The position numbers were made by a program, and so were the translations under genes. DNA of 64,000 nucleotides from Eledone cirrhosa (taxonomy: Eukaryota). The stretch lies in NCBI GenBank assembly GCA_964016885.1, contig OZ024744.1:51460001-51524000 (forward strand), written 5' to 3'. The notes under the pieces were generated by a model. It made no database searches and was not told the DNA's origin. It saw only the letters and a program-made list of their open reading frames with translations. Numbering within the stretch: the first letter of the stretch is position 1; every line of letters starts with the position of its first letter. This document shows, piece after piece, positions 4,132 through 60,868 of the stretch.

Positions 4132-4170
4132 AGACGTCTGATGAAGGTCTAGTGTCCGAAATGTAAACAT
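4132..4170 (+). ncRNA. Hammerhead ribozyme motif, degenerate (family A)
   Basis: CTGATGA aggtctagtgtcc GAAATGTA; homologous to the copy at 5930-5965. Confidence 0.5.
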
Positions 4171-4294
4171 ACTTTCTTACTATGTCAAGTGTTAACCTAA
4201 CATATTTCTTCATTGTAATGTGTTGTTTGTTTTGTTGTTTCCGTTTCCGTTTTGCATATGTATATATATATATATATATATATATATATATATA

Positions 4295-5880
4295 GTTATA
4301 TTTGGGGAGGGTCATATTTGCGTAATATTGCCAGAATTAATAACAGAACACACTCACTGTTTGGTTGGTTTTCGCTTCTCGCTGTCTTTTATATATATAT
4401 ATCTGCGATCTAACTTACTCGGTCCTCAATGTTGCCATTGACTGACCGGCGGTCAAAAATAAAATAATACAGATACAATATAGACAAACACATATATATA
4501 TAGTTTACATAAATCTTTCGTTGCACATCTGCAACATCGTCAGTGGTGTTATATTCATTGTTCCTCCTGTTGTGTTGTATGTCTACGCCATTTTTTTTTT
4601 TTTTTTTTTTTGTTCAGTCCGTCTATATATTTATTTATTTGTTTGCTTGTTTGTTTATCTTATTTTATTTTGTCTTCTTTGCGCATGCGTTTGCGTGTGT
4701 GATGTGTGACTAGTGTGTATAGTGTTGTGTCTGCTGGGTGACTAGTGTGTGTTTATGTGCTTGTGTATGTATTTATTTATCTTATTTTATTTAATTTAAT
4801 TTACTTATTTATTTATACTTCTCTTAGGTCAGTGTTGTTTGTTTGGGTGTTGTTGTTGTTCCACTCATTCTTTCTGTTTAGCTTTGGTCTTCTAATTTCT
4901 ATTTCACTGGCCTCTCTGATTTGCCTATCTGCTGGGTCATTCCTATGTTTAGATATTATTCTAATTTCTATGTTGTCTATGTTACCGTCATGATGTTGTC
5001 TAGCATGTTCGTATAGTACTGACCCGTTTTTTCGTCCTTTTAGTTCCCCCCAGTGTTCGTCTATCCTTTCACCTATGCTACGAGCTGTCTCACCTATGTA
5101 TGTTGTTGTCGTGTTTCTACAAGTACCCTCTGTACATCTTATGCTATAGACTACGTTTCTAGTTTTACAGTTTATCCGGGGGTTCACCTTACATATGATA
5201 CATTTCCTATTGGTACAGTGGGTTTTCTTAAAAGGGTAGGTTTTGCTGATCAGGGATTTTATGGTGGTTCCTGGCTTTTCTACCACCTTTATTTTTAAGT
5301 GGGTCTTTCTCAGGGCCTTTCTACACTGGTTAGCTAATTTCCCTCCAGGGGTGGCGTCCACAAACATGACACTCTGATATCTCTGGTTGTCGTACCATGA
5401 TGTGGCCTTCCCTATCTTATGTCTAGCCCTATCTAAGCTATTCCATGATTTGCTCCTGTATAGTGGGCAAATTCCTTTCATGTCCAGTTCTATGAGGGTC
5501 TTATACTTTTCCATGGCTCCTTCGTATACTCTGACTCTGTCTCTTTGGTTGTAGCCAGAGAACTGCATGCGGTTGATGAAGTGTTGGATGTGTCCTTCCA
5601 TTTCTGTTGGGTCGCACATGCTGGACACATTCTTCATCACTCGTACCAAATCTGCGATCAGAATATTAAACTTAGCACTACTGGACATTGCTGAGTTTTT
5701 GAGTATCAGGTATTTGGAGGCCATGGGTTTAGCATAGTGTGAGTGGAGAATTTGGGCTCTCTCGTCTATAGTGTTAATCCAGGCAATATTACGCAAATAT
5801 GACCCTCCCCAAATATAACAATATCTGTTTCGACACACGATTTCATATAAAAAACCTCGCAAAACTAATTCATCGCCGCT
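4295..5880 (-). mobile_element. Penelope-like element copy 1 (5'-truncated; RT thumb + GIY-YIG) with an inverted 3' tag
   Basis: ORF 4813-5780 reads HYAKPM...CxxC...NVVYSIRC...YIGETARSIGERIDEH...RQIREA...LNRK. The 3' UTR has an HHR. 5782-5880 is an inverted copy of the element's 3' end. (TA)n on both sides. Confidence 0.9.
4508..4548 (-). ncRNA. Hammerhead ribozyme in the pLTR of PLE copy 1
   Basis: Minus strand: CTGACGA t gttgca(gatg)tgcaac GAAAGATTTA, with a perfect 6-bp stem II. Confidence 0.7.
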
Positions 5881-5929
5881 ATATATATATATATATATAT
5901 ATATACGTGTGCAAAACATTATCATTCTT

Positions 5930-5965
5930 TCTTCTGATGAAGAACTAGCGTCCGAAACGTTAAGA
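5930..5965 (+). ncRNA. Minimal type I hammerhead ribozyme (family A)
   Basis: tctt CTGATGA agaactagcgtcc GAA ACGT T|aaga; palindromic ACGT loop III; inside a roughly 150-bp element between (TA)n tracts. Confidence 0.7.
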
Positions 5966-57828: not shown

Positions 57829-58031
57829 TATATATGAATGTATGTATAGTATATTTGAAAATATACTGTATGTTTAATTAAAAACATTTAGAAGACCATT
57901 CGCTATGAGTTTTAAAGTAGTGACTACGTCACTTACTTATTCTCGGCAAATAGCCGAAGAAAGGTCTTTTAAATGTTTTTAATTAAACATACAGTATATT
58001 GTCAAATATACTATACATACATTCATATATA
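57829..58031. repeat. Inverted repeat (about 78-bp arms) with an internal hairpin
   Basis: atgaatgtatgtatagtatatttg...aaaaacattta / taaatgttttt...caaatatactatacatacattcat. Confidence 0.8.
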
Positions 58032-58074
58032 CATCGCTATTTCAGAGCACCAATACTAATATATATATAAGATC

Positions 58075-60425
58075 AAAAGATGGTTAAAAGAGTTCCAAGT
58101 ATTTTATTATGCGCATTTCAAAAACAAATATCATGGGCTGATATTTGCGTTCTCATCAGATAAAATAGGGAAACATGATATGAAGCTTAAAAAGCACTTG
58201 TGAGCAGTGAAGTGTTAAATTAACATATGAAAAAAAAGTAAGATGGATATATGAGATTGGGAAAAAAAGGAGGAGGGGGTGTAGGAAATGGTAAGGAAGA
58301 GGAAGAAAGAAAATAAAGGATGAAGTGGGAGGAGTATAGGAAGGAAGGATGAGAGAGGAGGAGAAATGAGTCATAGAGAGAGAGAGAAATAGCCTTTACA
58401 ACTGAGAAAACATTGTCTCACAGAGAGAAATTAAAAAACCGTTGGAAGATAATAGATAATTTTAAAAGATTTTGAAATTAAAAGTTAATGAGGTTTATGG
58501 ATGTTGATGTTTAAGATTAAATAAAAAGGAATTAAGAATAGTATTAAAGGTTTATATATTGAAGGGTTTAATAATATGTGCGAAAAAAAGAATCTATTAA
58601 TATGTATTATTAAAATAAAAATATTAATGATATTAAGGATATAATGTGAAAGAAGGAGAAGAATAAATGAATTATGAACTTAGAGGAATTAGTTAGGGTT
58701 TAAGTTTGATTTTATGTATTGTAATATGTAAAAGTAAATAATAGGTTTAAAACGAGCACGGAAGGAGAGAAGAAAAAAGAAAATGTAAGGAAGAAAAATA
58801 TCTAACGTCAAAAGGTATATATGTTTACAAAAATTTCCTAATGATAATATTATTATGTATTAAAAAATATAGTTTCTATGGCCAATAATATGAGGACAAA
58901 TGGAAAAATGGAAAAATGGAAAATGCTGTAGTGAGTAATAATATGAATTGAGAAGCAATTGGGAAGTAAAAGTTACAGATTAAAGATTAGAAATTAAAAA
59001 AGAAAAAAGGGAAGAAAGGAAAAAGGATAAAAGAAGAAAGATAGGGGACCTCTAACGATATAGAATGAGTAAATTGTATAATATACTGAAATAAGGTAGA
59101 AAGATGGGTATATTTGTAATAGATATAAAAGCCTTTGAGAAAAAGAAGATTTAAAACTAATTATGTATTGAGATATTAGCTGTAAACTTTATGGAAAGTT
59201 CTATAGGTTTTATGCAAGCAGAGCGAGAATAAATCCGTACGTCTATTTATTATAGAATTAAAATTAGATATAATGGTAAATTTCTCGGCTAGGCAGAGAT
59301 TATATGTTCTGGATAGGGAAGAATTCCGATAAGGAAAGTCGTTGCAAACCTTCCACCAAGAGATGTTATAGTTAATATTTTTGTCTTTTAAGGACCATAT
59401 GAGTTCCGAGAGTGCCGTGTTAGTTCTTTTGAGTTGGTATTTAAAAGACGATTTGTGATTTTAAAATCTTGCTTTAAAGGAACTGGAAGTGGAACCGAAA
59501 TAGGTAAACGAATTAGTACCAGTTATAACCTTTCATTCATACACTAAGTTTTTATCAAGACATTGGTTATTAAGAGGGCATTTAGTTCTAACAGGGCAAT
59601 TACAATTACGATTAGAGAAATTAACAGAGTTATTAACAAGTGACCTAGTATTATTTATAGAAGGAATTGGATTGGAGAATTTATTTACGATAGGCACTAT
59701 AGTTTCCTGATTTAGATTGGTATTATGAACATTCAACGAAGTTACGTTTGACGTCGTATTTAAATTTACTGAATCTATCCTAGAGTTAACATTGACGTCG
59801 GGTATACTACTGCTATTATTATGACGCTCAGTGTTGGATGGATGTAATTTATTATTTAATATTTTATTATTGTGTTTAGAGATAATGTTAGAGATGTTGG
59901 AAGTGGTGGAATAAGAGAATTTGATTGTATGTTTGTTAAAGATTTTACTATAGATATGCGAGGGAGGGAAGCATTTATATAAGGCCCTAAAGAATAGTTT
60001 AGGAATATTATTAGTAATAGATAGAGAAAAAGGAGCATTAAACCAAATCATATTTTTGTATCTAGGTCTTTTATTTAATTTATTGGAATGTTCATAATTA
60101 ACTGTTTTACTATAAATCCTTCGATAATTGGTTTCTTTACTGTATTTAATTTTATCAGGATAACCGGCTTTGGAAAGCGCATTATTATAGTAATTGGCAT
60201 TAGCGTCGAAGATAAATTTATTAGAGGATAGATTTGAGATTCTTTTTTCAATATTACTGACTATAGCATTTTTAAGTATATTGTTCTTAATAATATTAAG
60301 GTTAACTAAGTTACAGTTTAAGACAGTAAAAAGGACATCGTCACGATAAATTCCACCGCGAAGTTGAGGAATTTTCCGATTTAAAGAATTCAAAATAAAG
60401 ATATCAATCAAGCCCGTCAATTGCG
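58075..60425 (-). mobile_element. Penelope-like element copy 4 (different clade; degraded RT + GIY-YIG, long 3' UTR with HHR)
   Basis: ORF 59533-60420 contains IYRDD, WFNAPFS and CNC...CPLNNQC...NLVY. Downstream it reads YFGSTSSSFKARF*NH...LSELIWSLK...NLCLAEK...INRRTD...CLH. Confidence 0.85.
58100..58167 (-). ncRNA. Type I hammerhead in the pLTR of PLE copy 4
   Basis: tattttat CTGATGA gaacgcaaatatca(gccca)tgatatttgttttt GAA ATGCGCAT A|ataaaata. Confidence 0.85.
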
Positions 60426-60437
60426 ATATATATATAT

Positions 60438-60868
60438 AAAATAAACTAAAATAAATAAGTCAAATATTTAAAATTTGGCTTCGTTTATTACTGCTATATA
60501 TATTTCGGTGACAGCCATCTTTGGCTGTGACCTCTTCAGGCAGTCCGAATTAGTGTGGTAGAGACGAGTACACATGTTGTTGAGGTGTTTAACTTTGTCA
60601 ATACTCTGATATGCCCAGTTCCTGGTTGGGTTGTTATTTCACTGAGGAACTGGAATCATATGAATTTAAACAAACGAATTTCAGCGTCAGAGGACATCAC
60701 CGAAATATATATAGCAGTAATAAACGAAGCCAAATTTTAAATATTTGACTTATTTATTTTAGTTTATTTTACACTACTCCGGAGTAACCAAACCAACCAC
60801 CGCACCTCGTCGAGTGCTCCATTCTGCATACTGAGGTGTTGGTATACAACCAACATATACTCAAAATG
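60438..60868. mobile_element. Family D inverted element; intact HHR at 60490-60544 (-)
   Basis: Minus strand: actgc CTGAAGA ggtcacagcca(aaga)tggctgtcacc GAA ATATATAT A|gcagt. The plus arm begins inside stem II at about 60696. Confidence 0.8.

Follow-up and report, generated by a model that had tools for sequence, protein, structure and literature searches.

What are the many short units with hammerhead ribozymes that crowd one stretch of the genome of the octopus Eledone cirrhosa, and how were they inserted there? The stretch, called the window here, is the whole 64,000 nucleotides (nt) analysed of contig OZ024744.1 (positions 51,460,001 to 51,524,000); it has 37% GC and is rich in (TA)n tracts. 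A previous reading made from the letters alone, called here the sequence-only reading, described about 23 hammerhead motifs, four of them attached to coding Penelope-like elements (PLEs) and most others in short non-coding units taken for non-autonomous elements mobilised by PLEs. In the present study, we consider it probable, at roughly 70%, that the units are heavily 5'-truncated insertions of many PLE families, mostly of the Hydra clade and some Neptune-like. PLE stubs bearing hammerheads are a known phenomenon, of which the units described here would be further cases at a striking local density. New are this local motif density and four additional half-ribozymes folded back at their own stems.

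Hammerhead motifs

The core C/TTGANGA was present at all 23 positions of the sequence-only reading, in which a minus-strand position denotes the low end of the 7-mer (4537, for example, is the core at 4543). Over the window CTGANGA was counted 48 times, compared with 18.4 +/- 4.2 after local shuffling of dinucleotides (60 shuffles). A strict type I descriptor, with a C3 core, an optional 9/10.1 bulge or U.U, UH, at least 3 bp in each of helices I and II and a palindromic helix III, found 11 motifs, every one within the earlier 23, versus a mean of 0.005 and a maximum of 1 in 200 local shuffles; this contrast is somewhat flattered, the descriptor having been refined after the motifs and the Hydra table of Craig et al. 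2021 (PMC8557442) were known. An earlier score-based descriptor gave 12 matches versus 0.36 in shuffles, and the first, unrefined one 9 versus 0.02. Thus, a similar motif density in shuffled sequence was refuted by the strict count. The intact motifs lie at 10018, 11919, 26987, 27113, 32789, 33059, 33389, 34086, 48114, 58159 and 60539. Ten others are damaged or weak but recognisable by eye, and are given here with the intact 48114.

4138: damaged hammerhead, helix II substitution
5934: damaged hammerhead, helix II substitution
4543: weak hammerhead, helix I of 2 bp only
7097: damaged hammerhead, G10.1>C
11417: damaged hammerhead, one mismatch in helix I
26527: damaged hammerhead, C3>U
8645, 8856, 9037: damaged or weak Hydra-type hammerheads
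48031, minus strand: damaged hammerhead, one substitution
48114, plus strand: intact hammerhead, Hydra-type U.U at the base of helix II

Motif 48114 had been held to be damaged; this was dropped, as its U.U fits the Hydra table of Craig et al. Two entries of the earlier list did not stand: 21503..21600 (plus strand) is doubtful, with a core and a distant GAAA and neither helix I nor a hammerhead fold, and 48631..48637 (minus strand) is a CTGAAGA half core alone, with no GAAA found downstream. Apart from these two, the listed motifs are, as judged from their sequence, genuine type I hammerheads with predicted self-cleavage. The estimate of about one ribozyme per 3 kb held for the 21 recognisable motifs in 64 kb, while the 11 intact ones amount to one per 5.8 kb. 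Because each of four pairs (8645/8856, 26987/27113, 33059/33389 and 48031/48114) belongs to the two mirror arms of one insertion, the 21 motifs represent 17 insertions.

It is extremely unlikely that the motifs are chance matches in AT-rich repeats or that the palindromes arose from assembly errors. Such an explanation is favoured by the failure of two listed motifs and by the covariance-model check, in which Rfam gave no match in the window at the gathering score; Hammerhead_1 at 34080-34124 (motif 34086) reached 30.3 bits, just below the cut-off of 34, and the best 150 of 203 matches ranked by E-value were mostly (TA)n-driven microRNA matches. The folding z-scores of seven single motifs were also modest (-0.1 to -2.8). 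For the motifs, however, chance is refuted by the shuffles. In addition, across diverged copies the helices were paired in 80 of 81 cells (9 insertions, each at 9 positions), and each position had 2-5 different pair types; since pairing was among the selection criteria, the information lies in this variety alone. Reads from two other samples that show the tail junction and one of the families, and coding relatives with a hammerhead of the same build, argue against chance or assembly errors as well (see below).

Coding Penelope-like elements

PLE coding sequence was searched for by tblastn and profile searches with 23 homologs, and was found in the window at 4813-5781 (A1), 10226-11216 (A2), 24729-26355 (A3), 59180-60426 (B) and in a scrap at 30510-30608. 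The closest relative of the main open reading frame (ORF) is an Octopus vulgaris protein with 59% identity. Reverse transcriptase (RT) with a C-terminal GIY-YIG domain is encoded at A1, A2, A3 and B and in none of the short units, although Pfam matched GIY-YIG in only one of the four fragments.

A1, 4296..5879, minus strand: 5'-truncated Neptune-like PLE with RT thumb, CX4CX2C linker and GIY-YIG; hammerhead core 4543
A2, 10128..11610, plus strand: 5'-truncated Neptune-like PLE; hammerhead 11417
A3, 24643..26780, plus strand: chimeric A1-type/A2-type PLE; hammerhead 26527, 61-nt tail
B, 58070..60426, minus strand: 5'-truncated Hydra-clade PLE with YRDD, CxCX5C linker and one in-frame stop

The four hammerheads described as adjoining coding PLEs are thus next to three Neptune-like elements and one of the Hydra clade, the last (58159) by contiguity only. 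In each of A1, A2 and A3 a long arm is accompanied by a short inverted copy of the 3' end, and just one of the two arms bears the 60-nt tail. In A1 the tail-less arm is joined to a 45-nt inverted tail-bearing arm (5774-5879), in A2 the inverted part is the tail plus 37 nt (10128-10226), and in A3 the inverted arm is tail-less and A1-type (24643-24728). A3 is 92% like A1 until about 26002 and then 91% like A2, with the switch near 26005 and part of the linker missing, which may reflect recombination or a template switch between subfamilies. Family A resembles Neptune elements in its C-terminal GIY-YIG, in its linker (CTNRKCIIC in A1, fitting the Neptune CX2-5CxxC pattern before GIY-YIG), in its microsatellite targets and in a bulged hammerhead; the clade is given by motif only and is not decisive, because Nematis shares the linker.

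In B the linker reads CNCPVRTKC, CLH is present as CxH, and the first C of CxxC is replaced. Among six homologs the CxCX5C linker was found in four, DKT in all six and RWK or RWR in four; B itself is without the DKT/RWK region. Together with CxH, these motifs form the Hydra-clade definition of Craig et al. 2021 (PMC8557442). The 3' region of B is about 1 kb long and ends in the intact hammerhead 58159, and an inverted 5'-truncated copy was not seen in B. An Asn-rich in-frame insert lies ahead of its linker (59620-59850, minus strand); N-rich inserts are reported in rotifer Penelope elements. The scrap at 30510-30608 (minus strand) is a small RT fragment that matches Hydra-type proteins and adjoins (TA)n.

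Anatomy of the short units

The other motifs lie in short non-coding units, which with the coding elements cover 20% of the window.

C1, 9820..10121, plus strand: 86-nt tail (inverted), then a fold-back hairpin centred on 9948; intact hammerhead 10018 in the tail-less arm
C2, 11649..12012, plus strand: inverted tail-bearing arm cut inside the core (11650-11843), tail-less arm with intact 11919
C3, 32675..32889, plus strand: inverted tail tip, then tail-less arm with intact hammerhead 32789
C4, 26800..27212, both strands: palindrome (centre 27047) with intact 26987 (minus) and 27113 (plus); 88-nt tail on the left arm only
C5, 32961..33570, both strands: palindrome (centre 33220) with intact 33059 (minus) and 33389 (plus); 84-nt tail on the right arm
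D1, 6936..7287, plus strand: fold-back hairpin at the 5' end (centre 6981), body with hammerhead 7097, 85-nt tail
D2, 60437..60864, both strands: tail-less arm with intact 60539 (minus), joined to a tail-bearing arm (60697-60864, plus) cut inside helix II
E1, 4040..4255, plus strand: damaged A-bulge minimal hammerhead 4138; left boundary uncertain
E2, 5906..6050, plus strand: damaged A-bulge minimal hammerhead 5934
F, 8580..8922, both strands: old inverted pair with damaged Hydra-type 8645 (minus) and 8856 (plus); arms 81% alike
G, 8946..9228, plus strand: damaged Hydra-type hammerhead 9037
H, 34063..34271, plus strand: intact hammerhead 34086 of canonical type in a single unit bounded by (TA)n
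I, 47836..48269, both strands: palindrome (centre 48071) with 48114 (plus) and 48031 (minus); 40-nt tail on the left arm

Four further units, absent from the earlier list, are (TA)n-bounded palindromes, each with a tail of about 77 nt, that hold only the 3' half of a hammerhead (GAAA, a long helix III and the GUC site).

K1, 12063..12250, unstranded: tail and palindrome with a hammerhead 3' half; fold-back at the predicted loop of helix II
K2, 31200..31402, unstranded: half-hammerhead family of K1, double fold-back
K3, 23955..24131, unstranded: half-hammerhead family of K1
K4, 34345..34482, unstranded: half-hammerhead family of K1, fold-back at the helix III loop

The K units had been taken for ribozyme-free controls, a view that was rejected when their alignment showed the hammerhead 3' halves. 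The point of fold-back is the predicted loop of helix II in three units and that of helix III in one. A sequence-only model, R1, gave 16 matches, comprising 13 listed motifs (partly by construction), the cut arm of C2 and two weak ones. Of the 34 unit ends, 26 lie at most 12 nt from a (TA)>=4 tract, versus a background of 12%, a figure that depends on ends set by eye with the help of these tracts; with this reservation, the short units are bounded by (TA)n as the sequence-only reading stated.

The same plan is found in coding and non-coding copies. A tail-bearing 3' arm stands head-to-head with a tail-less inverted arm in A1-A3, C1-C5, D2, I and K1-K4, with variants in D1 (a fold-back) and F (an inverted pair); the tails of C1-C5, D2 and I measure 40-99 nt. 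The arms within one copy are 92-100% identical in 10 of 12 pairs, the exceptions being the chimeric A3 and the old F, whereas different non-coding copies are at most 87% alike. Because arms are closer within than between copies, each insertion likely formed its inverted structure independently, as far as arm comparison can tell. For the same reason, amplification of a pre-formed palindrome in the manner of miniature inverted-repeat transposable elements (MITEs) was not supported by these 12 pairs. The inversion junctions also differ among units. At the hairpin centres an unpaired loop of 3-12 nt was present in 11 of 11 cases, as self-priming would give, and four of these centres are at predicted loops of ribozyme helices. 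Hairpins in the tails were unconvincing (8 of 10 z-scores above -1.1).

The single or head-to-head arrangement with a PLE tail also bears on the question whether the units are non-long terminal repeat (non-LTR) retrozymes or their monomers, spread via circular RNA, which we regard as very unlikely. In the available text of Cervera 2020 (PMC7229834) and Li et al. (bioRxiv 10.64898/2026.07.22.740005), non-LTR retrozymes are likewise non-coding, short, low in GC and PLE-derived and have a type I hammerhead; unit sizes of 150-600 nt and the low GC fit, retrozyme monomers have been described, and unit H has a canonical-type hammerhead with no inverted arm seen. Those elements, however, are head-to-tail tandems, and no head-to-tail repeat containing a hammerhead was found in the window, which is why we do not take the units for retrozymes. 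The 567-nt tandem array mentioned below lacks a core and an Rfam match, unit starts are not at the cleavage site, and paired ribozymes are on opposite strands.

Relatives in metagenomes and reads

Among 40 metagenome loci that encode Hydra-type proteins, seven carry a hammerhead of the build found in families C and D, with 3 bp, a 1x1 mismatch, a long helix II, a long palindromic helix III and cleavage mostly after UA. In one of them (L002) the leader preceding the ORF recurs as the tail, and its post-cleavage region aligns with the tail of C5 (0 of 500 shuffles as good) and with C1 (3 of 500). The motif TYGAGYRCT, defined after the fact, occurs 17 times in the window, with seven copies in the tails of C1, C5, D2 and K1-K4, eight in the palindrome 53684-54527 and two elsewhere, and 26 times in the metagenome Hydra loci. 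In coding Hydra loci a longer form, CTCC...TTGAGYRCT, is conserved both in the tail and immediately upstream of the start codon (L002 1-62 and 2413-2474; ahead of ATG in L004, L010, L011, L015, L028 and L040), and is a candidate recognition signal for the Hydra protein. Another locus, L022, has two different hammerheads at 2081 and 2299, 218 nt apart on the same strand and downstream of the ORF. The family-C pattern had no match in the metagenomes. With one mismatch allowed, GGGTATGTC was found 13 times in the window versus 12.3 expected; as it is not enriched, its resemblance to the 5' start of Hydra-1_Obim is only a lead.

Two libraries of restriction site-associated DNA (RAD) were mapped at 80% likeness to window positions 9830-11600 only (1.8 of 64 kb), and 2.0% and 1.8% of their reads matched. 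At 10110, reads from many copies part from C1, some running on into the tail and others into (TA)n, and the dominant read subfamily differs from C1 upstream of the core. From the depth at 10091, scaled by a 2.8-Gb genome, the genome would hold about 10,000-33,000 arms of the C1 family, or one per 85-280 kb; this estimate is rough, being inflated by RAD sites inside elements and deflated by AT-rich loss, and the runs are perhaps from another species. The window has six such arms in 64 kb and may be enriched for them; its 20% coverage by hammerhead-bearing and related units compares with 6.83% of annotated PLE sequence in O. vulgaris.

Other repeats in the window

A tandem array at 50598-53562, between (TA)n tracts, consists of about five copies of a 567-nt unit at 99.5% identity, with no hammerhead core and no Rfam match. 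At 53684-54527 a young double palindrome surrounds a (TA)n tract, with 368-nt arms that are 99.7% alike; it holds the eight tail-like motifs, and no hammerhead was found in it. More short palindromes adjacent to (TA)n, also with no hammerhead found, lie at 27968-28181, 57850-58010 and 24276-24370 and are possibly PLE stubs of other families. Fragments of non-LTR retrotransposons (RVT_1; endonuclease/phosphatase domain) are at 39-947, 39549-42161 and 62421-63995, and 39549-41073 is 75% like 62421-63995. A 6.4-kb satellite with units of 15, 32 and 47 nt covers 12703-19073. About 10 copies of a 190-nt repeat resembling short interspersed nuclear elements (SINEs), 75-90% identical, are also present.

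SINE-like repeat copies: 19849-20054, 20546-20735, 30756-30945, 35961-36189, 37081-37286
SINE-like repeat copies, continued: 37603-38002, 45406-45605, 46739-46939, 56071-56296

Discussion

If the units are truncated PLE insertions, the GIY-YIG endonuclease would nick a (TA)n tract and reverse transcription would begin at one of two sites on the PLE RNA, so that the copy includes the tail or lacks it, and halt after 40-300 nt. Two start sites were observed in vitro for the Poseidon element of the anole (Frangieh et al.), whose insertion did not need ribozyme cleavage. An asymmetric unit would be completed by a second complementary DNA (cDNA) of opposite orientation, whereas in a palindrome the cDNA would fold back on a small hairpin, sometimes helix II or III of the ribozyme, and copy itself; both routes of completion were proposed by Arkhipova 2013. 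The ribozyme would be carried into the stubs because of its short distance, about 50-150 nt, to the start site. In the stubs it would probably be a decaying passenger, and the damage in 10 of 21 motifs is as expected of passengers. In the parent RNA, the ribozyme is predicted to cleave as a dimer, because helix III is palindromic. Dimeric PLE hammerheads are reportedly the topic of a 2017 paper.

Earlier work agrees with truncated PLE insertions in several respects. Tail and inverted-arm anatomy has been described for PLEs by Craig et al. 2021 (PMC8557442) and Arkhipova 2013, and O. vulgaris has 190 PLE families, making up 6.83% of its genome (2026 O. vulgaris repeat paper). Cervera and de la Pena 2014 (PMC4209133) took hammerheads that stand alone or in pairs on opposite strands to be probable truncated PLEs. 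As there, the window motifs are type I with a long helix II, a short helix I, a palindromic helix III and an optional 9/10.1 bulge; most of them stand alone or form pairs on opposite strands with 100-700 bp between the two, and they belong to many families with few beside ORFs. In contrast to the minimal helix III in the available text of that paper, helix III here is mostly 6-8 nt, and the thousands of motifs per genome reported there (about 9,000 in Xenopus tropicalis) compare with one intact motif per 5.8 kb here. With the Hydra-clade PLEs of Craig et al. 2021 the window shares CxCX5C and CxH (in B), U.U (in unit I), (TA)n targets, a 3' hammerhead, an inverted 5'-truncated copy and a one-sided tail. 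As far as the accessible parts of that paper go, it differs in tails of 40-99 nt instead of 30-40 and in the Asn-rich insert and 1-kb 3' region of B. None of six window motifs was in its supplement, so that these window families are not in that supplement. The paper lists a hammerhead in Hydra-1_Obim from Octopus bimaculoides.

Several observations weigh against this explanation. Unit lengths are two-peaked and specific to each family, with four of 1.4-2.4 kb, 13 below 350 nt and none between, and they depart from one exponential (Kolmogorov-Smirnov p=0.005, with hand-measured lengths). The tail-less arms of C1-C4 start within about 14 nt of each other, 63-75 nt upstream of the core; for these four of the five C copies, three simple nulls applied post hoc gave the clustering a P of 0.003-0.035. 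The window yielded no parent ORF for any of the families C, D, E, F, G, H, I and K, none of 12 comparisons of short-unit upstream sequence with the 3' region of B beat shuffles, and no clear inverted arm was seen in E1, E2, G and H. The link between the B ORF and hammerhead 58159 is by contiguity over an atypical 1-kb spacer (88-332 nt in five metagenome loci), and the L002 alignment fell short of significance in 11 of 13 targets, among them D1, D2, C2, C4, G and B. The identity of arms could alternatively come from gene conversion within palindromes. In addition, the sequence downstream of B resembled none of three C tails.

The family-specific lengths, the clustered 5' ends of C1-C4 and the missing parent ORFs would suit another explanation, in which families C, D, I and K are SINE-like, non-autonomous RNAs of about 200-350 nt that consist of a pseudo-long terminal repeat (pLTR) only, with their own promoter, hammerhead and tail, and are copied in trans by Hydra or Neptune proteins. 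In run X1, moreover, the summed contig depth (not a copy number) is several-fold higher at the C ribozyme end than at the A ORF, and PLE derivatives without autonomy and the use of pLTRs in trans are on record in the literature. We nevertheless judge this unlikely, though by no means negligible. C5 extends about 90 nt beyond the boundary common to C1-C4, the start points differ between D1 and D2 and between E1 and E2, and no two window copies have a common junction or more than 88% identity. A fixed 5' end would also be explained by fold-back at a conserved hairpin, or by reverse transcription of a full-length RNA from its upstream pLTR, as the start sites of Frangieh et al. and the layout of L002 suggest. 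Of the sequence-only reading, the type I hammerheads and mobilisation by PLEs therefore stand, while a dedicated non-autonomous status is not borne out, given the coding-copy anatomy and the per-insertion inversions; its several unrelated families are indeed several, but most share one Hydra-type build. A bolder view, that the octopus genome carries at least 100,000 hammerheads, the densest load of any animal, much of it from short non-autonomous pLTR-only Hydra-clade RNAs that become palindromes whenever they insert, through self-priming on hairpins of their own, ribozyme helices included, is doubtful and is offered as speculation.

In the literature on octopus or cephalopod hammerheads we found only Craig et al. 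2021 and a twister paper, and no title on a genome-wide octopus hammerhead count, in searches that covered few subscription papers; ribozymes are mentioned neither in the text nor in the supplement of the 2026 O. vulgaris repeat paper. If the units are truncated PLE insertions, young, near-perfect two-armed inserts with one-sided tails and fold-backs at ribozyme helices are natural test cases for the unsettled model of PLE integration and self-priming. Short palindromes of this kind could be mis-annotated as MITEs, SINEs or microRNA hairpins. One intact hammerhead per 5.8 kb in the window compares with about one per 235 kb in the axolotl (120,000 in 28.21 Gb), and, in view of this density and of the 10,000-33,000 arms estimated for one family, the octopus may surpass all other animals as a source of natural hammerhead variants.

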